This document shows positions 6,559 to 52,487 of a DNA stretch of 64,000 nucleotides, one piece after another. The notes under the pieces are model-generated. The model had not been told where the DNA came from and ran no database searches. It was given only the letters and a program-made list of their open reading frames with translations. The translations under genes and the position numbers were made by a program. The number at the start of each line of letters is the position of its first letter. Position 1 is the first letter of the stretch. The DNA comes from a virus, in the IMG/VR virus record IMGVR_UViG_3300034377_000007, positions 1 through 64,000 of that record, one strand, 5' to 3'.

Positions 6559-6908
6559 TCAAACCTCATCCCCGAATACTCTGCGATAACATCGCAGAGT
6601 TCTTTGCGTTGTGCTAACTCTTCGGTCCTCTGGCGGCACACCGCAATCATCATTCTGGCAATGTGCTTTCTCAACCAGGATAGTTCTTTCATTTCGGCAA
6701 TACGCTTTTGATATACAGCAATAAAGCATATCGCCACTCTGTATGTTTCCAGTTCTAGTTTTTCTCGCTCAAGGCGCTGCCGTCTGATAGAAGTGATTCT
6801 TGCTGCACGCGCCCGTATGGCGGGAAGACGAGCAATACGCATCTCCTCATCATAAAGCCCGTTATAAATATAGGGCGGCGTCCATTGCGTCTGAACAAAT
6901 TGGCTCAC
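6555..6908 (-). CDS. Hypothetical protein (117 aa)
   Basis: It is translationally coupled to terL through an overlap at 6905-6908. Confidence 0.55.
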   Translation of the reverse strand: MSQFVQTQWTPPYIYNGLYDEEMRIARLPAIRARAARITSIRRQRLEREKLELETYRVAICFIAVYQKRIAEMKELSWLRKHIARMMIAVCRQRTEELAQRKELCDVIAEYSGMRFE

Positions 6909-15800: not shown

Positions 15801-18800
15801 TATAATAACGCTCGGCGTATTCTCTTTCCTCTCTGGTGGTGTTAGGTGGCGGCTCGAATCTCTCGACAGGGCGCGCGCCGCCTTCGGCAAACAAACCGCT
15901 CTCAGCTTCACGGAAGCCTAAGCCTCCCTGTTCGGGTTGGTAGTAGTCGGAGAGTTTACGGGATGATTGAGGCGCGCCGTTCTCGCCGAAGTCGAAGCTT
16001 GTATCCGCTTCCCCCTCCGGCTCCGTCTCGTCTATTACTTCTTCTGCAAATATTGCTGGTTCGCTTTGCGGAAGAAGAGCATCTGATGAGGCTTCATCCT
16101 GAGACGCGAGGCGAGCGAGCGCAATTTCTCTAAGCGAGCGGAGTGTGATGCCGATGAGTTCTTCGTCGAGTCCATAAGTTGCACCTATTGTAACAAGGTC
16201 ATCGTAGATTTGGGAAGATATTTCGCCCGTCCGTTCGATCTCCGCGAGCATCTCCGCAGCGTCTTTGTCCTGCATGAAACGCGCTTCACGCTCAAGCAGT
16301 TTTTCCTCTTCGGCTGAGACCTCGCCTAAAGCTGCTATCTCTTCAAAGATGGGGTTCTCTGTCGAGAGGTGGCTTGCTATGCCGCGCGCGTCGTTCTCTA
16401 CGGCTTCAAGGAATTTATCAGGGTCAACGTAGCCGTACTCAGCATCGGTCACGATGTCGGGGATGTCTCGTAGATACCCGGCATCATAAGCAGCCTGCGC
16501 CATCTGCTCGACGGTGAAGCGAGAATTTTTATTGACGAGGAATGGCTTGCCGAGTTCCTTCTGTGACAGACGTTTTAATTCTTCACCTTCGCCCTTGACG
16601 CCGCCAGATAATTGAACGAAGCGCCTGAGCGAATGCTTTTTAGGGTCGGGGGCTTGACGCTGGCGCGGCTTGCGGTTGGCAGCCTTATCAATCTTGGCCT
16701 GCCGTTTCCGCTCCGCTCTTGTTTGCCGGGAAGCGGTCAGAGGCTTCAAAGCTTGGGGTACTTCAATCGCAGGATGTGCTAAATCACTTTTCGCTGTGGG
16801 GGTAGATACGGGTTGCTGAGATTGCAAGGCCGTTCTCTTAGTTGCGAGTTCAGCTATTTCCTTGTCAACCAAAGCCAGCGTGGTTTTGTATCTGTTCGGG
16901 CGCGGAGATTGAAGCTGGCGCGCAAACATACTTTGCAGGTCTTTCTTTTGCCGCCCTAACTGCACTTGTCGGCTATCGAGCTTTGACAACTCGCGCTCGG
17001 CCACCTCTGTCTGAATCTGCGCCTCTGGCTTTAAAAGTTCCTTTAACTCTCGTTCAATAGCAAACACCCGTAACAGCGTGTTTTGCTGGTGACGTTTCTG
17101 CCGTTCAGAGGTGCGCGCCCACTGGTCAGGCAGCACTAAAGAGGGGTCAATGTAGTGTAGCCCTTGATATTCATGAATCAGTTCAGAGGCACGTTGACGC
17201 TTCTCCACCGGCAAAGCGTTGAACGCTTCTGGTCGTACCACCGTCTGACGTACTACGGCACTCTTATCAAGCGTTGGCTCTTTTATTGCAGTGGTGGGTG
17301 TAGTCTCCGCATTCTGCGACGCTTGCACCTGATCTTCTTCAGCCTGTGGAGCATTGGACTCCTTCGGGGCAATCCTGAGCCCCTGGCGTGTGCGGACGGG
17401 AACCATGATGCGGTTTCCCTCGCCTCGTCCGTTGGACTGTTGAACGATGTGCTCCGTGCCTTGATCGTCGGTTACTCGTACGCGATTCTGTCCTACTCCT
17501 GATTGATTGGAGCTTTCGGTGACGAGGCCAAAGTCAGCATGTCGCCATTGACGTGGGGGTTGAGTCTCAGAGGCGGCGGGTAGACTATCTGCGCTCCGTT
17601 CTCGTCCATCACCCACGCGAAGAGTATTCCCCTCGGCTGTTGGGCGTAGGAGTTCTGTCTGTCCAGCCTGCGGCCCATCTCCTCTTGGTGCGCCTGCACT
17701 AACTTGGAAATCTCTTCGCACTCCGCTTGCGCCATCCGAGCTACGAGCTTTGCCGCCTCTGCTATCTGTTCCTGCGTTAGACTCTGATAGGCCATTTTCC
17801 TCTACTCTCCTTTGTGCTGCTTCCTGCGCTGACAGTAATTCCTGATTCGCGGTCTGCGGGAATTGCCGCCGGTCAACTTCGGCCTGTGCAATAGCATCTG
17901 CCTCTGTTGGCACAATCGAAGTAGACAGTTCTCGCCCTTCCGCATCTTCTGTTCTGAGAGCTGGCCCAACACTTGTGTCTGTTACAGGTGCAACTTTTCC
18001 GATTAAAGGCTCGAAGCCGTTTTGAGCAACATAGTCCTGAATAGACTTGATACTTGTGAGCCCCATCGCCCGCGCTTTCGTCCTCTTGACGAGCAAGAGC
18101 CCATCGGGGACGGGAACGCGTATGAAGCCGGTCGTGCCGCCCGGTTCAGGTGAAGATTTCGGATAGAAGACGGCGACGCGGGGGGAGTTCTCGTCTCTAG
18201 CGCTTTCAAGCTGCGCTTCAATGGTCTGAGACGACTCGGGCACGGGCGCGGCGTCCGTCTCCGATGGCTGCGGCAGCAACGCCTCTTCCGCGCCGTTCAC
18301 CCGCGCCTCCGACGCTCCCTCCGTGCCTCTGGCCGCCGCCGGAGCGTCCCCTTCGGCGCTCTGCGTCCCTTTCCAGACGTAGACGGGTTGACCGTGGCGC
18401 ACGTCGCGCACGTAGCCTTCCGGTATCTCTATGGAATAGGTATCAATGATGCGTGCGTCTAAAGTAGCCCGGCGCTTGATTCCGGCCTGTATCGCTTTTA
18501 ACGCTTCGGGCTGAATCGCGGGACGGGCAGATTCGTCAACGGCGATTCGATCAAGCTTGACGAGGCGGACATTTCCATCGTCGCCGCGAACGCGGGAGAA
18601 TCCCTCGGGGGCTTCACCTTCCGCCCGTAACCTTTGCCCGTCTTCGGGCGTCAGTTCTTCGACCGTGCCGCCCCTGACCGTGCCCTGTGTATCGGTGAAG
18701 GTGACGGGCTGCGCAGGTTTCGGCTGCCGAACCGTTGAAGGTTGAGCATTCTCAGCCTGCCCTTCGACGCTGGTGGCGGGCGCTATCTGGTCAGGCAAGG

Positions 18801-20943
18801 CATCAGACGATAAACCCTCGTCCGCCGGTTCCGTGTTTGCCCGCGCCGCTTCGCTGGAACCTCTGTGAATACGCCCGCCGTGACTGCCCGTTGCTGCGCT
18901 GACGATGGCAGAGAAGAGGGCGCCGGTCGCGCCGCCCGCTCCCGCAGCCGAGTAGATGCCGTCCGTCCATTCGCGCGACTTGTCGTAACCGACGATCTTC
19001 CTGGCTATTACATTGCCCGCCGCCGTCTGGAAAAACTCCTGTACGCTCTCCTCGAAGGTCTCCTTGCCCATCTCGATGAGAGCTTTCTTGAGCGTGCCCC
19101 CGCTGATCCTATCCAGACGACGAAGCGCGGTGCCGACACCAGCCACCTCCGAGGCACCGACGCCGCCGTTTAAGAGAGCCGAGAGGGTCGCATCGTCCTC
19201 ATTTGCTCCATGCCGCTTGGCATCCCTGTAGCCTTCCGACATCCCCATCGTGACGCCGAGCAGGGCCGGGACGACGTATGCCGATTTACTGATGAGCCCG
19301 CCGGATGCGAACCCGACGGCAGAGCCGATGGCCTGCGGAATCGTGGAGGCGATAAACTCCTCCTGCCTTGCGGGGTCGGTCGGGTAATGACGCCGCGCAG
19401 CTTCGCGGATAGCCTGCGCCCATTGGGCCGTGACCAAATCCGCCGCCTGGCTGGCGTCCCTGTAGGATTGCAGACCTTCGGGCAAGTGCCTGTCTATGTT
19501 GTAGGCAGTGATGGCTATAGCATCAAGAACCCCTGCCGGCATCTCGGCCACACCGGACAGGAACTGCCCGAACGCGTGCGCGCTGGTCGAAATGGGCTCA
19601 CTACCCACTCGTGCCCTGATACGCGGAGCGGAAGCTCGCGCCCGTGTCTCCTCTTCCGACTCGATGCGCCCTTCCGGCGAGAGCGTGCCGCCCTGCTGGA
19701 TATGGGCGATCTGAGCTGGTTGGAGGCCGAGGCGGCGCAGGGCTTCGGGTCTGACCTCTCGAATCTCCCCGCCTGAACCTAAGCCCCGCTCGCGTAGACG
19801 CTCCCCGACGGGCGCAAGTCCCGGCCCCTGTCGGTTCATTTCCTGTTCGATGGCTGCACGACGCTGCATGTAAGCATCGTCCGAACGGCGCACGTCGGCG
19901 ATGCTCGGCCTCTCTCTTTGCAGGCGCTCATATTCAGCTTTCGCCGCTGCGTATTCCTGCGCCTGCTGGTCGGCAAAGGTTGGGGCGAGCAGGCCGCCGA
20001 ACTCGGGGTCAACCGGCCTCTCGGTCAACTTCCGCCGTGCACGCTCCATGCGTGTGCGCGCTCTCTCCACCTGTCGCCTGCGTGTGCGCTGTGCGGCTCT
20101 CTGCCCCCGTCTCTGCTGCATTAGTGAGACCGCCTGCTGGTTGACCTGATCTATGGCAAGCGGATGATCGCGCCATCTCGCCTGTTCGGCTAACAGCTCG
20201 GGACTTGCAGGGGAGAACTCGTCTCCTTCACGCTCAGCCGGGGGTATGCGAGGGGACTGCACAGCCCGGGTTTCAGGCTGTGCAGTTTGCGTAGCAGAGG
20301 CGGTCGGCGGGACGCTGTTTAGCCGGATGAGTTCTTCGGGAGTGATCTTGTAAGTCCTGGCTATCTGCTCTAACGTATCCCCTTCGTGGGCGATGATATG
20401 GATGACTCCTTCGCCTGCCCAGTTCGGAACGGCAACCTCTTCTCCGCTTTTGAAGATGCGCGTGGGGGCCTGCTGCGTAGCGAAGTCAATCTCGGGCCTC
20501 GGCGTGAGCGACTGTCCGATCAAAGTAGGGCTGTAAGTCGGCATCGCCGCGCCGAGGCCCGGCCCGCGCCCTCCCGGCGGGCCGACGTGGATATGAGGAG
20601 CGGTGGATTTGCCCGGAACGGCTTTATCCCAAACCGTGTGCGGTATGCCCTGCCCCTTCAGCCATTCGGCGATCCACCGTACCTGCTCGGGTGTTTCACC
20701 CTGATTGATGCCGATGTCGAATCGCCCCTCGTGGGGGATGCCCATGCGGCGGTGGGTCTCGTCGTTGCCGAAGGAAGAGACGCGGATGTCCTTGCCGAAG
20801 ACGGAGCGATAGGCTTGGTTGAGGCGGTCGCGCACGTCCGCGGGGTCGAATGAGAGGCCCGGGGTGCTGCGGGCAGGCTTCGCCACGTCCGAGAAATCAA
20901 TCTCTTCCGGCCTGGCTGCATCTGAGAAGTCGATAACAGACAT
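9871..20943 (-). CDS. Giant multidomain polyvalent-type protein (3690 aa), probably virion-packaged and injected
   Basis: It is an uninterrupted 11-kb ORF upstream of terS. The domains seen by eye are listed as separate features below. Confidence 0.9.
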   Translation of the reverse strand: MSVIDFSDAARPEEIDFSDVAKPARSTPGLSFDPADVRDRLNQAYRSVFGKDIRVSSFGNDETHRRMGIPHEGRFDIGINQGETPEQVRWIAEWLKGQGIPHTVWDKAVPGKSTAPHIHVGPPGGRGPGLGAAMPTYSPTLIGQSLTPRPEIDFATQQAPTRIFKSGEEVAVPNWAGEGVIHIIAHEGDTLEQIARTYKITPEELIRLNSVPPTASATQTAQPETRAVQSPRIPPAEREGDEFSPASPELLAEQARWRDHPLAIDQVNQQAVSLMQQRRGQRAAQRTRRRQVERARTRMERARRKLTERPVDPEFGGLLAPTFADQQAQEYAAAKAEYERLQRERPSIADVRRSDDAYMQRRAAIEQEMNRQGPGLAPVGERLRERGLGSGGEIREVRPEALRRLGLQPAQIAHIQQGGTLSPEGRIESEEETRARASAPRIRARVGSEPISTSAHAFGQFLSGVAEMPAGVLDAIAITAYNIDRHLPEGLQSYRDASQAADLVTAQWAQAIREAARRHYPTDPARQEEFIASTIPQAIGSAVGFASGGLISKSAYVVPALLGVTMGMSEGYRDAKRHGANEDDATLSALLNGGVGASEVAGVGTALRRLDRISGGTLKKALIEMGKETFEESVQEFFQTAAGNVIARKIVGYDKSREWTDGIYSAAGAGGATGALFSAIVSAATGSHGGRIHRGSSEAARANTEPADEGLSSDALPDQIAPATSVEGQAENAQPSTVRQPKPAQPVTFTDTQGTVRGGTVEELTPEDGQRLRAEGEAPEGFSRVRGDDGNVRLVKLDRIAVDESARPAIQPEALKAIQAGIKRRATLDARIIDTYSIEIPEGYVRDVRHGQPVYVWKGTQSAEGDAPAAARGTEGASEARVNGAEEALLPQPSETDAAPVPESSQTIEAQLESARDENSPRVAVFYPKSSPEPGGTTGFIRVPVPDGLLLVKRTKARAMGLTSIKSIQDYVAQNGFEPLIGKVAPVTDTSVGPALRTEDAEGRELSTSIVPTEADAIAQAEVDRRQFPQTANQELLSAQEAAQRRVEENGLSESNAGTDSRGGKARSSDGASGVRRDFQVSAGAPRGDGPQAGQTELLRPTAEGNTLRVGDGRERSADSLPAASETQPPRQWRHADFGLVTESSNQSGVGQNRVRVTDDQGTEHIVQQSNGRGEGNRIMVPVRTRQGLRIAPKESNAPQAEEDQVQASQNAETTPTTAIKEPTLDKSAVVRQTVVRPEAFNALPVEKRQRASELIHEYQGLHYIDPSLVLPDQWARTSERQKRHQQNTLLRVFAIERELKELLKPEAQIQTEVAERELSKLDSRQVQLGRQKKDLQSMFARQLQSPRPNRYKTTLALVDKEIAELATKRTALQSQQPVSTPTAKSDLAHPAIEVPQALKPLTASRQTRAERKRQAKIDKAANRKPRQRQAPDPKKHSLRRFVQLSGGVKGEGEELKRLSQKELGKPFLVNKNSRFTVEQMAQAAYDAGYLRDIPDIVTDAEYGYVDPDKFLEAVENDARGIASHLSTENPIFEEIAALGEVSAEEEKLLEREARFMQDKDAAEMLAEIERTGEISSQIYDDLVTIGATYGLDEELIGITLRSLREIALARLASQDEASSDALLPQSEPAIFAEEVIDETEPEGEADTSFDFGENGAPQSSRKLSDYYQPEQGGLGFREAESGLFAEGGARPVERFEPPPNTTREEREYAERYYKEKELERSLGKDNVATLAGLQEDDVPPRVRRLASQVVKSADRVDTEVLADTLPAPSKLAELDRSSTPVSDYVNQPMLVGEKDLTSEQERLLAEIDRTGKLPSGLIEQPGTQEIANELNGLFGDGPLKMAQAAIKKITDTPEFKRWFAGSKVVDGQGRPLVVYHGTLADFTEFDLSKFGQTDSGSWGKGIYLSKNPDKAAEYALGNDYARAVGRPNDGTIMPVFVRIEKPITPTALDRIEADLYRNYSLKSGETWQDAIRGRLISEGYDGVYSADSDRVMVLHPDQIKSATGNRGTFSLSDPNILKMASVEQSRLRTIEHASDFIPSASSAREENIVTVNAEGGEVIRRALVSKVQDLEDAPTLDGLFLEPSQVRMIVKTLQGTARDMRDPEMGWSSDDVKPLNDLAGNLLDAAREGKGTAVIKFKDAPAAAEPHESFHAGSYLGAEGRVLEDRHTKIEELESHPAVSAWRNYYSSTREYMNASRGLAIEETAATIAGGDYAKLGLSDEEAANYLELWTRSFIERNGPNAFSEFKRQESHVRQAIENAKRAYNSSQADGESSALRESDQAGRRVAESPGGGTQGRDKEVPSGAEGEAREVRARALPSTLRTQGLRAADELYEVYPNKAALLDGKRLLEQIGFDAAESLLKSGQALGAEHIALSKMMQRALLSEAFATIDAEEASALRARAEALASTLAAAFTKAGQAIQAAQIADNSVEDVMATAARVARERGRELSEKEAARIHRAGEELESASAVLAVAGAEASGARAEVEQSRKLIGWAEEGALTMAEIDTLRKRLASLRDKEKRREDRLKELEGLLPERARKPRSGISVKRKAVELLAVDEADLMASVRASLGLGDVPLKMARRDKMPPMSERQPELMSGKEAEGQTGTSGRLEIEDAVSRFKRAYPNTKLTDRRGNPVTLYHGTTGAVEAFDLTKADPEASYGRAVYLTTSEKDASKYATDHPDRNVSKEGARVLKLFANLENPFRPDISTVTLEDLKRAVGSDSYLLSNIERNLGHIEADTSKPLSGQAVEYAVRAGFKPWRGAAELQKVLRNLGYDGVIYNPTKELGKHLKERGSHVVVFDPTNVVFAEGSKPSDAPTSAAQSNSSHLLKMAQVEESVRPLDEDTIDNLAKLGALKLLRAERGRLSVSAWKRVMLSDFGRGISSDLDRIHAKSVKLARQTIRQARHDRAIRRISERPGNEELSRDELEDIYREEREERKRLAAVQAEHEKAAREFEKGPKPGRIAGLRAKLGPKYGPRLSDATGKKEGPRLGEDLKRRPGPLLSEGVKSGPPKPTALDRAIARNALTHIDAIAATKLSRGLSPGHLVSEMMADHGLTATEARTAFMSGGEVLERARAEVTASREMAAALKKHVASTETERDQALASLQEARRARQEAGRRVARELDALKKSPAQRIVGTAWRASKGIPISLMASGEVSNLLRQGGVPSVMQPQLFPAFVKATTSSIRDAGFARNIDVIEQDPDFPLMQRMGIDFSFAGGNKGEEFFEDADVLQRIPIIKQTLGTFVRKSDQVFGGGLDHLRHALGKLWIDELRAKGVGYKDNPRAYKDVGRFINIVTGRADIGDHNTAATKAYLALGRMIGFAPRYRVSRLQFLTLPLNPSFWHAPPEARRIVYKNTARWWGTMAATFGALATLGWITNEALISLFDPDDDDWMKFKYGKIRIDLSAGNATHARTVLRLMMEAYRGLTGQVTGQMAFDKVIGEGADSIMGRWLHSGADPRASLMIEAATGETFDRRPFTWFGDYGIDGAIGTRLTPITYQNFFQTGRKEGFAYGAAQAGAEAVGLSANVYPDRADEPKTRAEKLAMRFVYKGERATSKKPDQETLRKLDELKTRSRRGEDVSREVIPLVASGVINENRGETIIKARSQTYLQEKFRLLSLEDARHVYSLATPAEQLSLKPILEQKEARQEEKDRKALDAAANPERAEIKRARAAKIQDRKRRRQELRANQ
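10790..10866 (-). other. Hydrophobic (TM-like) segment near the C-terminus of the giant protein
   Basis: The segment is WWGTMAATFGALATLGWITNEALISLF. Confidence 0.4.
12449..13218 (-). other. ART-like module 2 of the giant protein
   Basis: RRGNPVTLYHGT...YGRAVYLT...ASKYA...GYDGVIYN...HVVVFDP is a paralogous copy of module 1. Confidence 0.55.
14488..14502 (-). other. HEXXH (HESFH) zincin-type metal-binding motif in the giant protein
   Basis: PHESFHAG lies between the two ART-like modules. Confidence 0.5.
14882..15426 (-). other. ART-like module 1 of the giant protein
   Basis: FKRWFAGSKVVDGQGRPLVVYHGT...WGKGIYLS...AAEYA...GYDGVY...QIKSATGNRGTF resembles the ADP-ribosyltransferase-like domain of phage polyvalent proteins, as I remember it. 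Confidence 0.6.
20308..20403 (-). other. LysM-like peptidoglycan-binding motif of the giant protein
   Basis: HEGDTLEQIARTYKITPEELIRLNSV matches the LysM core (GDTL..IA..Y.....L...N). Confidence 0.65.
20581..20781 (-). other. LAS-type zinc peptidase-like segment of the giant protein
   Basis: The pattern IPHEGRFDIGI ... APHIHVG fits the H-x(n)-D ... H-x-H metal-ligand pattern of LAS / M15-type cell-wall peptidases. Confidence 0.5.
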
Positions 20944-28675: not shown

Positions 28676-29398
28676 TTACGCCTGCTTTCTGTCAAGTACG
28701 GTGAAGGGTTTGGTTAACTGCGAGCCGTAGCCATGCTCGCTGAGTTTTCGGGTAAGCACATTGCAGAGTCCGACCATCTGGCGAACAACGACCGGGTTTT
28801 TCCAGTCGGTTAATTCGGTTTCGATGATGCGCTTTGAAGTGTGGAAATATCCGGTCTGGCTTTGCCCGCCAAGCCCTTTATGAACCTCGTTCTGTTCTTC
28901 CGTGAGCGTCTGGCCGTGCATGTGCATATCGGCCTGTTTGAGTGTTATAGGCTTAGCGAGAAACTGCGCGGTGAAGGAACTAACCGGCTTATCTTTTAAC
29001 CTCTGAACGGGGAGTCTCAAGGCTACGGCAATCTTCGCCTCTTCTATTCCGAGCTGAGATGCGCGCTGGCGTATCTGCTTGACCTGGTAGGATGAGTAGC
29101 GCACGCCATGCTCGGCATTAGCAGCGACGGCTTCAAGAAAAAATTCCTGATCACTGCCCATGTCAACCAGCACGGCGCTGATCTTCTTACGCCCGGCTTT
29201 TCGATGCGCGCGGGCGCGGTGTTCACCGTCAACGATTGTCATCGTCTTCCGGTCAACTTTGATCGGAGGGAATTTACTGCCCCCGAGAAGTGCCTGCGTG
29301 TAGTTCTCCACCGCCACCATGTCAACGGCGTGGCGTGGATAGAGATATGAATTCGCCTTCAGATCGTTTAATTCAAGGACTACAGCCTCTTCCGTCAT
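28676..29398 (-). CDS. ParB/Srx-fold nuclease-domain protein (240 aa)
   Basis: TIVDGEHRARAHRKAGRKKISAVLV matches the ParB N-terminal-domain motif (DG.HR..A). I chose the start at MTEEAVV, which has an AGGAGG RBS. The upstream part of the track ORF is Cys/Arg-rich and probably non-coding. Confidence 0.65.
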   Translation of the reverse strand: MTEEAVVLELNDLKANSYLYPRHAVDMVAVENYTQALLGGSKFPPIKVDRKTMTIVDGEHRARAHRKAGRKKISAVLVDMGSDQEFFLEAVAANAEHGVRYSSYQVKQIRQRASQLGIEEAKIAVALRLPVQRLKDKPVSSFTAQFLAKPITLKQADMHMHGQTLTEEQNEVHKGLGGQSQTGYFHTSKRIIETELTDWKNPVVVRQMVGLCNVLTRKLSEHGYGSQLTKPFTVLDRKQA

Positions 29399-29451
29399 AT
29401 CAAACCTCCTGCCCAAACAACACAAAAGCCCGCACCGTTTGGGCGCTATGT

Positions 29452-29566
29452 TGCACAAATCTTGCGACGGACTTGTGGACACAGACGCCCGCAACGATGC
29501 AGGCTTTTCTATTAAGATTTGTGCAGACCTTCTCCGAAAACAAGAAAGCCCACAAGTCCGTCGCAA
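29452..29566. repeat. Two interlocked perfect inverted repeats upstream of the ParB-nuclease-like gene
   Basis: A is TGCACAAATCTT (29452-29463) and A' is AAGATTTGTGCA (29514-29525). B is TTGCGACGGACTTGTGG (29462-29478) and B' is CCACAAGTCCGTCGCAA (29550-29566). The order is A-B...A'...B'. Confidence 0.7.
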
Positions 29567-29602
29567 TTCCAATCACAGCACAAAACACTTTCTCGTGGCT
29601 GA

Positions 29603-31918: not shown

Positions 31919-32893
31919 TCAGGAAGTACGCCCTACCGTGCTTTCCCCGGCGCGCAACTCTGAAAATCTACGATTTAACCTTTCGTGTAACGACTGCTTG
32001 GATATACCGAGAAGCCTCGCCGCCTCCGCTTTATTTCCTTCCGATTCCGTTAAAGCCTTCTCTATCCATTTGGCCTCAACTCTATGCAACTCTTCTTCAA
32101 GGCTGAACTTTGACCAGCGCGTATCCCTGACTTCCGCCAGGTTTCTTTCATCATTGATTGAGCGGAATATTTGCTCGGCACGGTCAAGGTGTTCTCTGGC
32201 TTCATCGGTCAATCCCATCTGAAGCAGTAGCCCGCCGATGTTGTTTTCGACCGCGCCCTGATACTGAAGGTGTCCAGCGAGTTCAAAGCAGACCGCCGCA
32301 CCTGAGTAGGACATGCGGGCCTCTGCAAAGCGCCCAAGTCTCTTTTGATTGATAGCTGTCCCGTTGAGGTGAAGCCCTTCAGTTAAAGGCGTCTGAATGA
32401 AAGGTCGTGCTTGTGCGTAGTATTCAAGGGCGGATTCATATCTCTTTGAGTCGCTTTCCATCACGCCCCTGTCCATTAGTGCGATGGCGCGACTGTCCCC
32501 GGCGGGGTAAAGAGGTATTGCCATCTCAAGCAAAGCCAGTGCATCGTCGAAGCTTTTATCTTTGTAGTAGGTGAGTGCTAGCTGGTGAAGGGCTTCGGCC
32601 TCTTTATCCTTTAGTTCGTATGCTCTGAATATCTCAACGGCCTCCGTCAGCAAGTCCCGCGCCCTTTCCTGCACATCTGACAGGCCTCTCTTTGCACCGA
32701 TCTTTGACGAGAGAGAACCGATACGGAGCAGTACTTCGCCCTGTATCGGCTTCTCAACGCTCATGCGGGGACGGATGCCTAAACCGCGCCACAAGCCCCC
32801 CAGGGCGCGTTTGGCATCTTCTAAACGCCCCCGCAACTCAAGTTCTCTGGCCTGTACGCATACGGACTTACATGTTTCGGTGTTGTAGTTCAT
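31919..32893 (-). CDS. TPR-repeat protein with C-terminal Fis-type HTH
   Basis: Repeated A..Y/ALxxA helical pairs are followed by IEKALTESEGNKAEAARLLGISKQSLHERL, which is HTH_8-like as in NtrC-family C-termini. No AAA+ domain is present. Confidence 0.6.
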   Translation of the reverse strand: MNYNTETCKSVCVQARELELRGRLEDAKRALGGLWRGLGIRPRMSVEKPIQGEVLLRIGSLSSKIGAKRGLSDVQERARDLLTEAVEIFRAYELKDKEAEALHQLALTYYKDKSFDDALALLEMAIPLYPAGDSRAIALMDRGVMESDSKRYESALEYYAQARPFIQTPLTEGLHLNGTAINQKRLGRFAEARMSYSGAAVCFELAGHLQYQGAVENNIGGLLLQMGLTDEAREHLDRAEQIFRSINDERNLAEVRDTRWSKFSLEEELHRVEAKWIEKALTESEGNKAEAARLLGISKQSLHERLNRRFSELRAGESTVGRTS

Positions 32894-34937: not shown

Positions 34938-35207
34938 TCACGCTGCTAGTCGCTTTTCCTCTTCGGGGTCAGCCAGAGGTCTTCCAACGGCTGAGACAGG
35001 CACGCCCAAGTAATCCGCAAATCTCTTCCTGATTTGTGGGTAAACAAATGGGGCGCGGCGATTCACTACACGACTGATTTTTGTTGGCGTGGCCCTCTCG
35101 GCTTTCCACTTGCGCGCCAACTTCACAAAATTGTCGCCGTTGAGGATGACCGCCGCCTTGATTTCCTCCGGCGTAAGAACCTTGCCGTTCAGTGGTGAAA
35201 GTGGCAT
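34938..35207 (-). CDS. Cro-like small DNA-binding protein (89 aa)
   Basis: The start is at MPLSPLNG, with an AGGAG RBS. It is divergent from the XRE repressor across a 64-bp region carrying a palindrome. The longer track ORF is an over-extension. Confidence 0.55.
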   Translation of the reverse strand: MPLSPLNGKVLTPEEIKAAVILNGDNFVKLARKWKAERATPTKISRVVNRRAPFVYPQIRKRFADYLGVPVSAVGRPLADPEEEKRLAA

Positions 35208-35254
35208 AGTTGCTCCTTTGTCTAGCCTGCTTTTGCAGGTGTAATATAAGGATA

Positions 35255-35271
35255 ACTTAACTAGGTTAAGT
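35255..35271. promoter_or_regulatory. Operator-like 7-3-7 palindrome in the switch region
   Basis: ACTTAAC-TAG-GTTAAGT is perfectly symmetric and abuts the repressor ATG. Confidence 0.6.
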
Positions 35272-35850
35272 ATGTCAAGAGAAAAGTCTGCCCCACCGAA
35301 GGGAGAGGTAAAACACCGTGGCCCGAAGTCTGAGCATCCCGAGCCAAAAGTAGGATCATTACCTTGGAAGATTAGACAGAAGAGAAGGAAAGACGGGCTT
35401 AGTACTGGCGACTTAGGTAAAAAGATAGGCGTCTCAGGCGTATCTATATCCAAGATTGAAACCGGGCGAACCCATATTAGCGAGTCCACTATGTGGACTG
35501 TTATAAAAATCGTTCAAGCGTTGAATACTGATTTTAATGAGCCTGTGGTGCGTGAGCACTTACAAGAATGGATACCCCGCTTAGACGATGTATGGCGGAT
35601 AGTGGAATATGGGCCGCACGACTTCGGAAAGCCAGAACAAGACACCGCAGAATACCCGCCAATGCCGCCGCAAACGCGCAGCCGATCAATGCACGCTGGC
35701 CTGGTGGGGACGGGTGGGACTAAAGGCGAGCCCGTAAACATCAACGAAGAGGAAATGAAAGATTTTCATGCCGTTATTCAACACGCCCGCACAGACCAAA
35801 AAAGGCGTGGCGTTTCTGCGAAAGTCAGTAAGAAAAGAGGCGGGAAATGA
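35272..35850 (+). CDS. XRE-family repressor (CI/ImmR-like, no S24 peptidase domain)
   Basis: The HTH_3 pattern is IRQKRRKDGLSTGDLGKKIGVSGVSISKIETGRTHIS. It is followed by an ImmA-type protease gene. Confidence 0.8.
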   Translation: MSREKSAPPKGEVKHRGPKSEHPEPKVGSLPWKIRQKRRKDGLSTGDLGKKIGVSGVSISKIETGRTHISESTMWTVIKIVQALNTDFNEPVVREHLQEWIPRLDDVWRIVEYGPHDFGKPEQDTAEYPPMPPQTRSRSMHAGLVGTGGTKGEPVNINEEEMKDFHAVIQHARTDQKRRGVSAKVSKKRGGK

Positions 35851-36293
35851 TCTGCATGGCTAAAAGATTCCGGCAAATAAGAAGGGGCTGGAATAAGAGG
35901 CCGTTAACAGAGAAAGACTTTTGGGCGTTGTGCAAGCAGTATGGAATTGATATTGTTGAGGACGACACTAAGCACATGAAATGGCCAGGCATCTATACGG
36001 TGATTGACGATGTGCCAACTATTATCTTAAAGGCCAACCTGAAGGGCTTAGAGCGCCTGTGGGCAATGTTCCACGAATTAGGCCATCATCTTTTGCATAC
36101 ACCCGAAACTTGCTTTTTCTCTGATAGCACAGTCCATAAGGTACAATCGGAAGCCAACGCTTTCGCCGCCATTGCGTTGATTCCTGAAAAGGTAGTAAGA
36201 CAAACGCCTCTATGGGAACTTTATGATGTGGATGAGTTCGCAGTTAAGCTATTTCAAATCAGATTAGAGGTGTATGAACAGTACAAAATGTAA
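35847..36293 (+). CDS. ImmA/IrrE-family metalloprotease (anti-repressor)
   Basis: It has an HEXXH motif (FHELGHHLLH), is about 150 aa, and overlaps the XRE stop by 4 nt. Confidence 0.75.
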   Translation: MICMAKRFRQIRRGWNKRPLTEKDFWALCKQYGIDIVEDDTKHMKWPGIYTVIDDVPTIILKANLKGLERLWAMFHELGHHLLHTPETCFFSDSTVHKVQSEANAFAAIALIPEKVVRQTPLWELYDVDEFAVKLFQIRLEVYEQYKM

Positions 36294-36318
36294 TCTTAAC
36301 GAAGGGAGGGCATGACAA

Positions 36319-36756
36319 GTGGTTAGGCCAGGCTGCTTGTGGTGTGACAGAGAATTAACAGAGGAAGAGTTCAAGCTTAGCAATCTATGCGATGAATGCG
36401 AGAAGGTTTCTGAGGGGATTCCAGGGATGTCCAAAGAGCAACTTGATACCCTGCCCTTTGGGGTCGTCCACTTAGACCGGGACGGCAAAGTCCTAGCGTT
36501 CAACCACGCAGAGAAGAGATTATCAGGTTTGCCGGAGCGAGAATACATCGGTCGCAATTTTTTCACCGAGATCGCGCCGTGCTCAGACGTTCAGGACTTT
36601 AAAGGAAGGTTCACCGAGTTCCTAAACGGAAACCATCTTTCCGAGCGCTTCGATTTCGCCTACCGATTCAGGGCGTATACCGTAGACGTTCAGATTACTT
36701 TTCTGCGGGTTAATCAGCAGATGGCCTTTGTGTTGAGTAGGCGGGTTCAAAGGTAA
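36319..36756 (+). CDS. Zinc-ribbon plus photoactive-yellow-protein (PYP)-like PAS protein
   Basis: It has a GTG start with a GGGAGGG RBS. The N-terminus is CLWC-x15-CDEC. The rest aligns with PYP: QLDTLPFGVVHLDRDGKVLAFNHAE...IGRNFFTEIAPCSD...FKGRF. Confidence 0.8.
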   Translation: MVRPGCLWCDRELTEEEFKLSNLCDECEKVSEGIPGMSKEQLDTLPFGVVHLDRDGKVLAFNHAEKRLSGLPEREYIGRNFFTEIAPCSDVQDFKGRFTEFLNGNHLSERFDFAYRFRAYTVDVQITFLRVNQQMAFVLSRRVQR

Positions 36757-36813: not shown

Positions 36814-37620
36814 ATGCCACTCAAAGATTTACTCAAGCAATCCCCGGAAACCTTTCCAATTTCCGACGAAGATGAATTGAGCGTCAACTTGTGGACAAAT
36901 GAGTTCATCTTTGAAGTCAGGTACGCACCAAACGCCCGCATCTTAGACCATCGCGGGAAATGGGCGGAACTTATCTCAAATCACATGGGATTCAAGCACT
37001 GGCAGATAATTGAAAACCGCATTGATGTCTTTTCGGAAGACCAGAAATCACGCGCCTTTGTGGGACACGACCGCGCTGGATACGTTCTTATTGACAGTCC
37101 TGGCAAAAGGTATTTTCAAGGGCAGACTGAGAAGCTTCTAAGGTATCTATTTAGATTAACCGAGTTTGGGGGTAGATTGAAAACAGAGCGCATTGGCGTG
37201 CGTTGCCGATTTGGGGTTAGATACGATGGGACATTTGATGAGCTATGCGAAAGAACGGCATCCCAATACATTTCAATCCCACAATCGACGCGCGCTGCCT
37301 TTGGCGAAAGCGCCCGCTTGAAAGACATAGGTATAGCGCTAAATTATGCCGATGAAATGGGCCGCTTTAATACTAATTGCGGCCCCATGACAAAAGCCGA
37401 GCTGGCGCAATTCTTTCAAAGGGACACAGAGAACCCGCCCCCCGAGGTGGGCTTCTACTTCGACATTGATTATTTCGTCAGACCCAAAGTCGAAATGATG
37501 GGAATTGAAATTATTCATAAAGTAATGAGGTTCTCAGATCAAAGCGTTAAGCGTTTTCAGTCGGTGCTTGAAATTTTAAATGGGGATACCCTTGATCGAA
37601 AGGCCCCTATTGAGCGATAG
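36814..37620 (+). CDS. Hypothetical 268-aa protein (possibly TIGR04255-like)
   Basis: It is a complete ORF in A/T-richer DNA in the immunity operon. The N-terminal FEVRYAPNARILDHRGKWAELI is reminiscent of that family, from memory only. Confidence 0.6.
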   Translation: MPLKDLLKQSPETFPISDEDELSVNLWTNEFIFEVRYAPNARILDHRGKWAELISNHMGFKHWQIIENRIDVFSEDQKSRAFVGHDRAGYVLIDSPGKRYFQGQTEKLLRYLFRLTEFGGRLKTERIGVRCRFGVRYDGTFDELCERTASQYISIPQSTRAAFGESARLKDIGIALNYADEMGRFNTNCGPMTKAELAQFFQRDTENPPPEVGFYFDIDYFVRPKVEMMGIEIIHKVMRFSDQSVKRFQSVLEILNGDTLDRKAPIER

Positions 37621-37668: not shown

Positions 37669-38205
37669 ATGGGCTCATCCTCGCGCAGAAAAAGAACGGC
37701 TCAAGCCTCAAGGCTGGTAGCAGAGCAGAAAGCGCCGCCTCTCAGGGTTGCTGTAATCCGTCCTGAACAACCATCCGACTCCACGGAGTTTCCTGGCTCA
37801 CGAGACATCCCTTCTGCGGCGCAATTCCTCAGGAGCGAGGACGCGACCACAGCGCCACCCATAACAAAAGACCCTGAGAAGATTGAAGCTCAAGGGCAAA
37901 GCCTCACGAGTGCCACACCCGCCGGTGCGCTCGTAAACTTTTTACAGGGTAATATCAAACCGGCAGCCTTTTCGCTAATCATACTTGTAGCTACAAGCTG
38001 GTTTGTATTTTGCATATGGATTCTTAAAAATGACAGTGATGCCGGGCGACTTGTTGATCGGGAAGGTTATAAACTGTATTCGTATAAAGTGCTGGCGGCG
38101 TCAGTTCTATTTTTGGTACTCATTGTACTGATTATTATTGTCTACATCGTTTTTACTGTGTTTGAAATTGTCCAGCAGAAACTCTTCCCACAAGACCCTA
38201 GTTAA
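37669..38205 (+). CDS. Membrane protein with disordered N-terminus and two C-terminal TM helices
   Basis: The TM helices are AAFSLIILVATSWFVFCIWIL and VLAASVLFLVLIVLIIIVYIVFTVF. Confidence 0.6.
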   Translation: MGSSSRRKRTAQASRLVAEQKAPPLRVAVIRPEQPSDSTEFPGSRDIPSAAQFLRSEDATTAPPITKDPEKIEAQGQSLTSATPAGALVNFLQGNIKPAAFSLIILVATSWFVFCIWILKNDSDAGRLVDREGYKLYSYKVLAASVLFLVLIVLIIIVYIVFTVFEIVQQKLFPQDPS

Positions 38206-49953: not shown

Positions 49954-51747
49954 GCCTGCCCTGTGCGCCGTAACCTGAGAAGTAGACCTTGCTTTGTAGA
50001 AGTTGGCAGCCCCAACTATACCCCCATCATGTGCTGCGTTCCTCAAACTCGCGTTAGCCGGTCTAAAGCCCTCGAAAATATAATTGATTAAATCTGCCGT
50101 GCGCGCCGGGTCTGCCTGAATCGCAGTTAAGCCGTCTGTATATGTTGAGCCGTATCCGCGCGCTGCTGTCCAGGAGGCCAGATTGCGAGCCGAGTCATAG
50201 AACTGCGGGTCGCCCGTTCCTTGGTGAACGTCTACGCCCGCTGCCACAGCATCACCGGCAGTCCACAAAGCATTTGATGCAAGCCTGTCCTCGTATCCTC
50301 TCTGGTTATCTCCCGCAGACAGATTGAACGTCCAGTTGTAATCCGCCCCGGCTGCCAATATGAGGTCTTTGGTCGTACCGGCCACCCTCTCACCAAGATA
50401 ACCCTGTGTGGCAGAACTGCCCCACCCGAGATTTGATTTCATCGCATTAAGGGTAGTGCTTGAGCCGCCCTCTGAAAAAGCAAACATCCCCCGCTTTCCT
50501 GCGGCGATTGAATCATTGACATTAGCCGTATTCCTATACCACTCAGTCGCAGATGTGCCAGCCCCGAAGGCGGTTAGCAAAGTCCCTGACGTGACCGACA
50601 CGGAAGGATAGGAGTTGATCAGTACGATGTTGTTTCTTCCAATTATTTTGTTCCCGCCGGAGGTGGCCGTAGCGTTAACTAAAACACTGTCTCCGGTATC
50701 AATCAGGTCGGGAGTGTGAGCTTCAAAGATGTTTTGGCTGACTATGGTATCTGCTGAAAGCAAGGCCGTGGGCGCAACGAAATGCGGGTTGCCTATCAGA
50801 TTATCCACTACAAAATAGTTGCGCTCCAAAGAAGAGGGGAAGAGCTGCCCGTTACCGCCGTTTAAGCTTCCGTCCTGCTTGACGAAGTTGAGGCGAAAAG
50901 TCCAGGTCGAGCCCGCGACGGACGCAAAACCCGAAGCGAAATAATTACCTGTAACCGAGAAAGATTTAGCGTTGTAAGTGACGCTTTTAGAAAATGTGTT
51001 TTTGAAGATACGGCGCGTGCCGGACGTGGCGGCAGTTGTGACAGAGAGATTCAAATCCTCGGTCGAGTGCGTTCCCGCAATAAAAGTGTTGCGGTCGAAG
51101 ATGATGTTTATAGTCGCGCTCGTGGACGTTGGCCTGATGCGACCACACGTATCAAAAGTAGAATCCGAGATTGAAAGGCTCGTCAAATTATTGGACGTGC
51201 CAAGCGCATTTATGCGACGAAAGACCCCGTAGGTGGCTGTGAAGTTGGCCCACGGCACGCCCATCCCAGCAGACTGCCCCGCTATCGCCTGAATTGTTAC
51301 TAGAGAGCCGCTTGAGCCGTTGAAATTGAAATTGCTGAAACCCACATTGATGAAAGTATAAATAGGCGAGCCGCCGCTTGCGGAATTATCGAACGTCACG
51401 GTTGAGCCCGCCTGCTGTGTGTGGGTTGAGCCGTTGACGTGGCCGATGTTTCCCTTGACGGTAAGCGTCACATTAGAGGCTACGGCAAGAACCGATGAAG
51501 CCGATGTCATGTTGATAACTTTTGTGATTGTGTCATTCGGACTTGTCCCGACAGTAGAGCTTATGTCTACTGTAACTGTATGGGCGCCGATTGATGCGGT
51601 ATCGCTGTCACCCGGTACACCTGCCCCTCCCCACGTCGAAGCGGAAGACCAATTGCCCGATTGTGAAGAAGTGTAGGCCGTTGCAAGTGCATGACTTGTG
51701 CAGAACAATAAACAGATAACCGAAAGAATGATTCGTCGCATACTCAC
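49933..51747 (-). CDS. Signal-peptide beta-helix-like protein (604 aa), tailspike or depolymerase candidate
   Basis: The sequence is MSMRRIILSVICLLFCTSHALA, then GNWSSASTWGGAGVPGDSDTASIG and S/T/N/G-rich repeats. Confidence 0.6.
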   Translation of the reverse strand: MSMRRIILSVICLLFCTSHALATAYTSSQSGNWSSASTWGGAGVPGDSDTASIGAHTVTVDISSTVGTSPNDTITKVINMTSASSVLAVASNVTLTVKGNIGHVNGSTHTQQAGSTVTFDNSASGGSPIYTFINVGFSNFNFNGSSGSLVTIQAIAGQSAGMGVPWANFTATYGVFRRINALGTSNNLTSLSISDSTFDTCGRIRPTSTSATINIIFDRNTFIAGTHSTEDLNLSVTTAATSGTRRIFKNTFSKSVTYNAKSFSVTGNYFASGFASVAGSTWTFRLNFVKQDGSLNGGNGQLFPSSLERNYFVVDNLIGNPHFVAPTALLSADTIVSQNIFEAHTPDLIDTGDSVLVNATATSGGNKIIGRNNIVLINSYPSVSVTSGTLLTAFGAGTSATEWYRNTANVNDSIAAGKRGMFAFSEGGSSTTLNAMKSNLGWGSSATQGYLGERVAGTTKDLILAAGADYNWTFNLSAGDNQRGYEDRLASNALWTAGDAVAAGVDVHQGTGDPQFYDSARNLASWTAARGYGSTYTDGLTAIQADPARTADLINYIFEGFRPANASLRNAAHDGGIVGAANFYKARSTSQVTAHRAGLSKFGL

Positions 51748-52487
51748 CTCGTCAAGTCTCTATTCCAGAAATAAACCCCGCCGATAACACCATTGAAGAA
51801 TCGCGTCGCGCCTTCGCTTGGCATGGTTGCGCCGACGCCGAAGAGAGGCGTCCCGCTCACAGCTCCAAGCCATGCGAACGTACCCGTGTTGGTTATCACT
51901 AAGGGATTCTCTTCTACATTATTTAAGAGAAGATAAAAGTCTGTGCCATCGTAAGTCAGAATTGCATTATAGGCAGTTGATGTTGATAGAACGGTCGAGC
52001 CCTCTACTGTTTGCTTTGTCCCTGCATTGTTGTATTCAATGTAAAGTTTCCCATCTGCCGCGATGCCGAACTCCCACCATGTATTTGCTACAGAGGAATC
52101 CGCCTGCGAAATCAGCACGAACGGCCCTGTAACACTGCTGCCGGTTTTGAAGACAACCGACAAGGACGCTGCGCCTGTTCGTGTTATCGCCTGACCCGAA
52201 TAAGAAAGAGCGTCGTTAGTGCCATCGAAGGTGAGGCCCTGCGTTGTGCCGAAGGCGCTTGAGATTACTGCGGGGCGATTGCCTGACGTGGCTTGAGAGA
52301 GTGTGATACTACCAGCGATTGAGGCCCATGCGCTTGCAGGGCTACCCGTAACGCTTGTATCCGACTCCCAATAAAGATCAGCTTTGGGCCGGAGCTGATT
52401 TTTGAAGGGAGACTGGCTATGTACTGTACCTAGTAGGGCATGCCCAGCTACTACGATGAAAAGTGTAAAGAGGAAGAATTTCAACAT
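51744..52487 (-). CDS. Signal-peptide LamG/concanavalin-like protein (247 aa)
   Basis: The pattern LTFDGTNDAL...SLSVVFK...WWEFGIAADGKLY...ILTYDGTDFYLLLNN is LamG-like. Confidence 0.6.
   Translation of the reverse strand: MLKFFLFTLFIVVAGHALLGTVHSQSPFKNQLRPKADLYWESDTSVTGSPASAWASIAGSITLSQATSGNRPAVISSAFGTTQGLTFDGTNDALSYSGQAITRTGAASLSVVFKTGSSVTGPFVLISQADSSVANTWWEFGIAADGKLYIEYNNAGTKQTVEGSTVLSTSTAYNAILTYDGTDFYLLLNNVEENPLVITNTGTFAWLGAVSGTPLFGVGATMPSEGATRFFNGVIGGVYFWNRDLTR

Follow-up and report, generated by a model that had tools for sequence, protein, structure and literature searches.

What does a homolog of photoactive yellow protein (PYP) do in the repressor operon of a phage? The question is raised by a gene in IMG/VR virus record IMGVR_UViG_3300034377_000007, positions 1 to 64,000 of which were analysed and are referred to here, over their full 64,000 nucleotides, as the window. 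The gene encodes a short protein in which a four-cysteine ribbon precedes a PYP domain, and it lies directly downstream of genes for an XRE-type helix-turn-helix (HTH) protein and an ImmA/IrrE-type metalloprotease. The reading we favor is that its product, hereafter the window protein, serves the repressor module of the phage (XRE, ImmA) as a subunit that senses blue light, and so regulates the switch, to which we assign a probability of about 0.45. The wider notion that temperate phages with uncultured hosts, probably of Acidobacteriota type, use PYP as an input domain or subunit of the master repressor, such that blue light gates prophage induction or the lysis-lysogeny choice, is more doubtful and is put forward tentatively. 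The gene and its parts are as follows:

36319-36756, plus strand: ribbon-PYP gene (putative zinc ribbon), 145 aa, GTG start, with a GGGAGGG ribosome-binding site ~8 nt upstream.
36334-36399, plus strand: N-terminal ribbon, C6-x2-C9-x14-C24-x2-C27, replacing the very N-terminus of the PYP cap.
36400-36747, plus strand: PYP domain, residues 28-143, delimited by PDB phmmer, TIGR02373 and Foldseek.

The window protein belongs to the PYP family and is not a generic PAS protein, a conclusion in which we place high confidence. A phmmer search of all PDB sequences returned 1mzu, the PYP domain of Ppr, as the top match (E=1.1e-21) and Halorhodospira PYP entries at E~4e-18; PYPs alone score above the best non-PYP PAS protein (E=3e-4), and query residues 28-128 align with PYP residues 9-108 without gaps. 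The NCBIfam model TIGR02373 ('photo_yellow') matches with 96.4 bits (E=1.2e-27) over model positions 8-120 of 124, and Pfam reports generic PAS and PAS_4 alone. When compared with PYP of Halorhodospira halophila or the Ppr PYP of Rhodocista centenaria (1mzu), the protein contains the same domain over its whole length with 30-38% identity and retains Cys69, Glu46, Phe62 and Pro68, but differs in the added CxxC-x14-CxxC ribbon, in the substitutions Y42F, T50S and R52L, and in the absence of Met100 and Trp119. Since Cys69 is kept and Glu46 is present, it is a PYP by published criteria.

Structure prediction agrees with this assignment. From an alignment of 103 sequences AlphaFold2 produced a model (mean predicted local distance difference test score, pLDDT, 77.8; predicted TM score, pTM, 0.67), which was compared with the PDB by Foldseek. 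The top 38 matches are all PYP or PYP-derived, among them the Y42F mutant structure 1f9i, and superposition on PYP crystal structures gives a root-mean-square deviation (rmsd) of 1.8-2.0 Å over 117 columns of 125 residues with target-normalised TM scores of 0.83-0.86 (for 2phy, E=8.8e-12 and 1.9 Å over 117 columns), against 5.7-10 Å for the first non-PYP PAS domain. The predicted fold is that of PYP, including the N-terminal cap helices. A generic PAS fold, which the original prediction had named as the result that would speak against it, is ruled out, as PYPs are ahead of other PAS domains by ~17 orders of magnitude in sequence searches and also by rmsd. That prediction was made from the sequence alone and called for a profile search and a superposition; the end-to-end PYP alignment that it claimed stands at the level of sequence, profile and predicted structure, and the sequence blocks that it listed are visible in the HMMER alignment. 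Since JGI's pipeline had already labelled the identical protein 'photoactive yellow protein', the family assignment is not new; what is new is the architecture and the phage-switch context.

Is the chromophore pocket intact? Alignment with an offset of +19 maps Tyr42 to F61, Glu46 to E65, Thr50 to S69, Arg52 to L71, Phe62 to F81 and Ala67-Pro68-Cys69 to A86-P87-C88. The chromophore-attachment cysteine in its APC motif and the Glu46 equivalent are thus retained (C88 and E65), and positions 42, 50 and 52 have changed to Phe, Ser and Leu exactly as the original prediction had described. Conservation was assessed in two sets of relatives: a close clade of seven clusters related to the window protein, found among 5.8 billion clusters, and the best 150 hits of a HMMER search with the clade profile against 1.84 billion cluster representatives (2,701 hits at E<=1e-3, 739 at E<=1e-10). 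The ribbon motif class lies directly N-terminal of the PYP core in 44 of these 150. Cys69, Glu46, Phe62, Ala67 and Pro68 are invariant in the close clade, where the Tyr42 position is F61 in the window protein and Tyr in P0004, and Cys69, Glu46 and Phe62 are kept in all 44 ribbon-bearing representatives; the cysteine whose loss from homologs had been named as a point against a photoreceptor is therefore conserved. Among the same 44, position 42 is Tyr in 29 and Phe in 13, position 50 is Ser in 29 and Ala in 13, and position 52 is Leu in 13 and Arg in 13, with an equal spread of residues at these positions in PYPs without the ribbon. Because ribbon and non-ribbon PYPs vary alike, Y42F, T50S and R52L represent ordinary family variation. 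That they signify lost function is ruled out, as they are common family states and Y42F is documented as tolerated (PMC9664959).

By the family definition Cys69 is conserved and members are expected to bind p-coumaric acid (pCA); at least one of Tyr42 and Glu46 is present in every PYP that has Cys69; and Y42F, the commonest natural variant (~9% of PYPs), is tolerated if Glu46 is kept, such that PYPs with Y42F and Cys69 are expected to bind pCA (PMC9664959). In the window protein, E65 supplies the required minimum of at least one of Tyr42 and Glu46 for the chromophore hydrogen bond. We predict, from the aligned pocket residues, that the protein carries pCA on C88 and responds to blue light, and a photoactive holoprotein probably forms in the host. 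The chromophore and its CoA ligase would have to come from the host, or the chromophore from the environment: as originally stated, the window contains no gene resembling tyrosine ammonia-lyase (TAL) or p-coumarate:CoA ligase (pCL), with no AMP-ligase or aromatic lyase among open reading frames (ORFs) of >=375 aa scanned with Pfam and/or PHROGs. Such an absence is normal, since just ~10% of PYP genes have an adjacent TAL and ~30% a pCL gene (PYP family surveys).

The missing chromophore genes, together with Phe at position 42 and Leu at position 52, would also suit a PYP-fold sensor of some other thiol-reactive or aromatic ligand, or of redox state, reporting to the repressor module without light. 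Certain PYP homologs whose pockets are altered have been proposed to sense redox state (PMC9664959), and the phage host, judging from the nearest chromosomal homologs (Geothrix, Blastocatellia, other Acidobacteriota), may be of Acidobacteriota type, perhaps among non-phototrophic soil bacteria. We regard a sensor of this kind as improbable, given that the pCA pocket (Cys69, Glu46, Phe62, Ala67, Pro68) is kept in full and is invariant in the clade, that Cys69 and Glu46 persist in every ribbon form, that Y42F and R52L are common in PYPs and Y42F with Cys69 is expected to bind pCA (PMC9664959), and that TAL and pCL accompany so few PYP genes in general.

The ribbon is likewise a property of the clade. 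C6, C9, C24 and C27 are kept in all close relatives with a called N-terminus, and the ribbon is present in all seven close clusters (in P0007 after correction of the start). The four cysteines would bind zinc; in relatives, the Pfam models DZR, DZR_2 and Zn_ribbon_3 match the ribbon weakly and below threshold. The original prediction was right in describing a ribbon fused to PYP, an arrangement that is conserved and recurs in the 44 representatives, and wrong about the spacer, which is x14, not x15.

What kind of operon does the gene belong to? Scans against PHROG and Pfam identify the window as a phage genome, in which the following features surround the PYP gene:

34938-35207, minus strand: small Cro-like candidate gene, 89 aa from the Met codon at 35207, with a good ribosome-binding site, heading the leftward lytic/structural direction.
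35208-35271: divergent intergenic region, 64 bp, a candidate operator/promoter region read from the sequence.
35272-35850, plus strand: XRE HTH protein, 192 aa, HTH at residues 34-86 (HTH_3 3.9e-8, HTH_31), with a ~100-aa C-terminal tail.
35847-36293, plus strand: ImmA/IrrE-type metalloprotease, 148 aa, HELGH motif (Peptidase_M78 3e-12; phrog_87 metallo-protease 1e-16).
36814-37620, plus strand: downstream gene, 268 aa, no Pfam, NCBIfam, PHROG or PADLOC match.
37669-38205, plus strand: downstream gene, 178 aa, hydrophobic C-terminal half, sub-threshold TRP match only, no PADLOC match.

The XRE protein matches PHROG transcriptional repressor and regulator families and, by position and family, is presumably the master repressor. 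The ImmA gene overlaps the XRE gene by 4 nt and the PYP gene starts 25 nt after ImmA, all on the plus strand as the original prediction had it; no terminator-like sites were found between the three genes, and they are probably co-transcribed. The large terminase and structural genes run leftward and XRE-ImmA-PYP rightward from the common 64-bp region, which is the geometry of a temperate-phage switch. Within this candidate operator region, a perfect palindrome, CTTAAC-TAG-GTTAAG, lies at 35256-35270 just 5' of the XRE start codon and is overlapped by a minus-strand promoter-like site at 35278-35249 (a consensus match only). The leftward 89-aa protein matches no Pfam family, the label 'Cro-like' being given by position only. 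Placement of the gene in the lysis-lysogeny unit is upheld, in that it lies in the repressor operon of a phage; the description of the element as a prophage is not, since no integrase was found among the scanned window ORFs, and 'temperate phage genome' fits better. The element might be kept as an episomal prophage, a ParB-like gene being present, or might encode an integrase in the ~4 kb by which the 68-kb contig exceeds the window.

HTH/M78 pairs such as CapH/CapP regulate defence operons, and the XRE-ImmA pair could accordingly be a CapH/CapP- or RmrA-like damage-responsive regulator of a cargo cassette, for example in defence or exclusion, made up of the PYP, 268-aa and 178-aa genes. ImmA matches the PADLOC models of RmrA (3e-10; HTH fused to M78) and CapP (3e-6), XRE matches RmrA, and the 178-aa membrane protein might act as an effector. 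Several results make such a cassette very improbable. PYP and both downstream proteins match no PADLOC defence model, so that PADLOC gives no sign of a known defence system 3' of the repressor. The XRE gene diverges from the gene heading the lytic/structural direction, as that of a master repressor would. No related locus keeps the downstream genes together with PYP (the 268-aa gene has no homolog there), so that BLAST comparison of the flanks also rules out a conserved multi-gene PYP cassette. Finally, PYP is partnered in relatives by a CI-type repressor with S24 or by an XRE protein that has no M78 beside it.

These relatives bear directly on whether PYP is tied to the repressor. Five informative close relatives (49-64% identity) lie directly after an unrelated repressor-type gene, either XRE or S24, in elements that are not homologous elsewhere. 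The loci of the close clade, including one that is truncated, are:

L001/L002 (P0005): stand-alone Peptidase_S24 directly upstream of PYP with a 4-nt overlap; integrase nearby.
L003 (P0007): 224-aa S24 repressor directly upstream of PYP; divergent ParB_N gene and integrase.
L120 (P0004): 149-aa HTH_3 protein directly upstream of PYP with a 2-nt gap; weak Phage_CI_repr match.
L121 (P0006): 122-aa HTH_31 protein directly upstream of PYP with a 21-nt gap; divergent gene with 30% identity to the leftward 89-aa gene of the window.
L119 (P0002): region upstream of PYP beyond the contig end.

Pfam confirmed the assignments of the partner genes in L001, L003, L120 and L121, and all-against-all BLAST of the flanks revealed almost no other genes in common. 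L001 lies on the 76-kb contig Ga0533278_000028 and L003 on the 283-kb contig Ga0193747_1000005. The placement of PYP in a repressor operon thus recurs beside non-homologous repressors. That the gene persists in this one slot, even though repressors and flanking genes differ from element to element, speaks for a functional link with the repressor module. The same comparison bears on the possibility that the gene is a lysogenic-conversion gene (moron), that is, a functional photoreceptor serving the lysogen through host signalling (two-component systems, cyclic di-GMP, motility, biofilm) and expressed like lambda rexAB. Its position in a lysogeny-expressed operon is typical of accessory genes, the two downstream window genes belong to no known family and are not conserved, and related ribbon-PYPs are chromosomal, with genes for response regulators, histidine kinases and a sigma-54 activator as neighbours; PYPs are known to act in phototaxis and in the control of pigment and biofilm (PMC12826048). 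A moron is nevertheless unlikely, because a host-directed accessory gene has no reason either to keep its slot after the repressor across non-homologous repressors and unrelated elements or to be fused, as same-clade members are, to DNA-binding domains at the repressor position in CI/Cro-like layouts.

Two further observations concern these loci. A stand-alone Peptidase_S24 gene (142-144 aa, no HTH) adjoins the PYP gene at L001 9576-10004, where it precedes a short ribbon-PYP, and at L123 746-1180, where it follows an extended ribbon-PYP fusion, hinting at a functional link between PYP and S24. An antisense ORF of 100 aa (36264-36566, minus strand) overlaps the PYP gene and appears 'conserved' in L001, L119, L120 and L121; it was rejected as a second gene, being the shadow of the conserved sense PYP gene.

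The fused forms provide a second line of evidence for a tie between PYP and the repressor. In the extended relatives the ribbon-PYP occupies the C-terminus of proteins of 210-320 aa. In P0057 (317 aa) an XRE HTH at residues 17-71 scores above gathering scores (HTH_31 37.4 bits, HTH_3 36.7 bits), with the ribbon (172-192) and PYP (203-300) both C-terminal of it, and its gene, in locus L129, is divergent from an 80-aa HTH_3 gene across an intergenic region of 97 bp (L129 411-507). As judged from its sequence, L129 is a CI/Cro layout in which the ribbon-PYP replaces the CI C-terminal domain. The window, L121 and L129 share with lambda CI/Cro the arrangement of divergent small and large regulators around a short operator region, and the divergent-regulator layout around a short intergenic region is found in L121, L122 and L129. 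Like lambda CI, the large L129 protein combines an N-terminal HTH with a C-terminal regulatory domain; ribbon-PYP stands there in place of the RecA-responsive S24 autocleavage domain of CI, whereas in L003 and L001 the S24 domain is present and PYP is an extra gene.

Other fusions may involve ribbon-helix-helix (RHH) domains. P0041 contains a weak RHH_5 match (E=1e-3, below cut-off) fused to ribbon-PYP, with a stand-alone S24 gene directly 3'. The P0021 gene adjoins a divergent RHH_1 gene (above cut-off) and small phage ORFs including a P22-family ORF; its predicted structure comprises a disordered strand region and two helices, the second very long, followed by ribbon and PYP, an architecture compatible with, though not diagnostic of, a Mnt-like RHH repressor. 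An RHH match is found in 1 of 45 extended forms, and most N-terminal extensions have no Pfam family. Across the loci, DNA-binding, M78/S24 and ribbon-PYP modules are combined in more than one way, in some cases fused and in others split. This fusion and fission with repressor domains strengthens the proposed coupling of induction to light or to a ligand. A neighbor-joining tree calculated on the PYP core places the window protein, its repressor-linked relatives and all fusions in one 29-member group from which chromosomal ribbon-PYPs are excluded. Bootstrap support is moderate: the group holding the window protein, P0057, P0021 and P0007 is free of outsiders in 69 of 100 bootstraps.

We propose a model whereby blue light would isomerise a thioester-linked p-coumarate, after which Glu46 would protonate the chromophore and the protein would partly unfold, as in established PYP photochemistry. 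In PYP, the N-terminal cap is released in the signalling state. The alignment of query residue 28 with PYP residue 9 places the ribbon on this cap, and a released or rearranged cap would move it. Output would plausibly pass through the N-terminus, because the DNA-binding domain is N-terminal of the ribbon in every fusion. In the fused forms, ribbon-PYP would serve as the C-terminal regulatory/oligomerisation domain of the repressor, and light would alter oligomerisation or the geometry of the DNA-binding domain. In the split form found in the window, PYP would contact the XRE tail, ImmA or the operator complex and either trigger repressor cleavage, as RapI does for ImmA-ImmR of ICEBs1, or protect the repressor. 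Repression would thereby become more or less stable, which would tip the lysis-lysogeny balance; partner and direction of effect are matters of inference, and the model does not predict the direction.

The ICEBs1 module offers a precedent for a third protein gating such a pair, as its separate sensor RapI triggers cleavage of ImmR by ImmA. ImmR-ImmA(-RapI) and phage XRE/M78 pairs show the same order as the window, an XRE repressor followed by an overlapping HExxH M78 protease, and differ in the third gene, a PYP photoreceptor homolog in the window and a Rap protein in ICEBs1.

A number of points weigh against a light-sensing subunit of the repressor. The window PYP misses the equivalog cut-off of TIGR02373 (143 bits, against its 96.4); this model recovers just ~20% of PYP homologs (PMC9664959), and the shortfall therefore speaks against a 'classical PYP equivalog' and not against family membership. 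No curated zinc-ribbon model of Pfam matches the window protein or scores above threshold. Formation of the holoprotein would depend on the host, because the window has no chromophore-synthesis or ligase gene. Six independent sequences are all that the small close clade comprises, and several of them come from contigs of 1-3 kb; the one solid HTH fusion, P0057, represents a single cluster at 50% identity, and its contig measures 3 kb. For fusions of the P0041/P0021 type the assignment to RHH is weak, PDB sequence searches being uninformative and a hand-made N-terminal alignment noisy. Only 35 of 100 bootstraps reproduce the 29-member clade exactly. Other ribbon-PYPs are chromosomal and near host two-component genes, and a gene that shares a transcript with a prophage repressor is frequently an accessory one that takes no part in the switch.

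How does the proposed sensor compare with known systems? PYP has been a model photoreceptor for decades, and we know of no PYP with a DNA-binding output. Published PYP architectures (PYP-PHY-HK, PYP-V4R, MCP-PYP, REC-PYP) include no ribbon or HTH fusion, and the window gene differs from known PYP genes in being phage-borne beside a repressor and a protease, not beside TAL/pCL, kinases, methyl-accepting chemotaxis proteins (MCPs) or GGDEF/EAL genes. A parallel among phages is VqmA(Phage)-Qtip of vibriophage VP882, where a PAS-type sensor likewise makes the lysis-lysogeny decision respond to an environmental signal, whether independently of DNA damage or besides it (PMC8284805). VqmA of VP882 is a PAS-HTH activator that binds the autoinducer 3,5-dimethylpyrazin-2-ol (DPO) and acts via an antirepressor (PMC8284805), whereas the window encodes a PYP-type sensor of a putative light signal that is linked or, in relatives, fused to the repressor. 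Among cellular regulators, BluF-BluR (PMC3509220), LdaP-PpsR (PMC10890935) and EL222/aureochrome (PMC4721966) exemplify a small blue-light sensor that antagonises a repressor or is fused to a DNA-binding domain, and the PYP clade shows both arrangements; unlike the PYP clade, these systems use flavin chromophores (BLUF, LOV) and control no viral switch.

That no PYP-type sensor had been described in a phage immunity setting, as the original prediction supposed, is borne out by the family surveys, by the open-access literature and by deposited genomes. The words phage, zinc and repressor are absent from PYP family surveys of 789 and 984 homologs, and the architectures and operon partners of the 2025 survey include no ribbon, HTH, RHH, S24 or M78. 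Full-text searches of open-access papers gave nothing relevant on PYP with prophage or zinc, or on photoreceptors with lysogeny. A tblastn search of 50,697 deposited phage genomes found no PYP, and a clade-alignment scan of IMG/VR viral contigs found no relative, a weak negative as that search hinged on two peptide patterns. Plasmids hold ordinary PYPs only, on large replicons and with 30-34% identity. Neither survey mentions ribbon-PYPs, yet these make up 44 of the best 150 representatives.

The downstream signalling partner of PYP is still a knowledge gap, according to PMC9664959 and PMC12826048. A PYP clade with HTH fusions, or located in repressor operons, offers an output that can be tested in light and dark as operator binding or repressor cleavage. 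If confirmed, this would be the first case in which the output of a PYP is identified (DNA binding or control of a repressor), and the first virus found to have a natural genetic switch under the control of light. Known inputs to the lysis-lysogeny decision other than the SOS response are chemical, namely arbitrium peptides and quorum-sensing autoinducers; a photoreceptor input, if true, would add a physical environmental cue. The compact ribbon-PYP-repressor unit would also be a new natural scaffold for optogenetic control of transcription.

Where does the ribbon-PYP architecture occur outside phages? The classes assigned to the best 150 hits of the clade-profile search are:

Plain PYPs: 70.
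Short ribbon-PYPs: 30.
N-terminal extension plus ribbon-PYP: 14.
N-terminal extension without clear ribbon: 31.
Proteins >400 aa: 14.

In Geothrix fermentans the ribbon-PYP gene follows a malic enzyme gene, and in a Blastocatellia metagenome-assembled genome it lies between unrelated metabolic genes. In other ribbon-PYP subfamilies the surrounding genes encode a sigma-54 activator, response regulators and kinases (L125, L127), or the PYP gene adjoins antiporter genes (L128). Since some ribbon-PYPs are chromosomal, the ribbon-PYP appears to be a general sensor architecture of which one branch entered mobile-element switches. A distinctive ribbon of the form CAWCG-x(10-20)-SHGIC-xx-C is common to chromosomal ribbon-PYPs from Holophagae and from other Acidobacteriota (L004, L005, L006, L036, L125; P0016, P0160-P0169). 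Two of the long proteins contain repeats: P0008 (1,174 aa) has 4 PYP-like stretches, and P0009 (4,799 aa) is a giant protein of repeated PAS/PYP fragments with 32 matched stretches, all at profile positions ~47-81.

The remainder of the window is that of a phage distant from those deposited, its terminase being <=30% identical to any of them. Two DNA methyltransferases and an O-like replication protein were identified by PHROG/Pfam, along with the following:

6905-9289, minus strand: large terminase TerL (phrog_38, 6e-59).
9871-20943, minus strand: ORF of 3,690 aa, residues ~1840-2030 of which match PHROGs of unknown function only (phrog_21376, 1e-30).
28676-29572: ParB-like protein (PHROG/Pfam).
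31919-32893, minus strand: TPR protein of 324 aa with a C-terminal Fis-type HTH_8 (Pfam/PHROG).
51744-52487, minus strand: virion structural protein (PHROG/Pfam).

Weakly similar TPR proteins are encoded at comparable leftward positions in two of the related elements (L001 5063-5554, L003 3627-4322), and the TPR-HTH_8 protein could be another regulator that these phages have conserved. The region from 18 to 22 kb, which covers the 5' part of the 3,690-aa ORF, has a G+C content of 0.62-0.63, compared with ~0.52 in the rest of the window.

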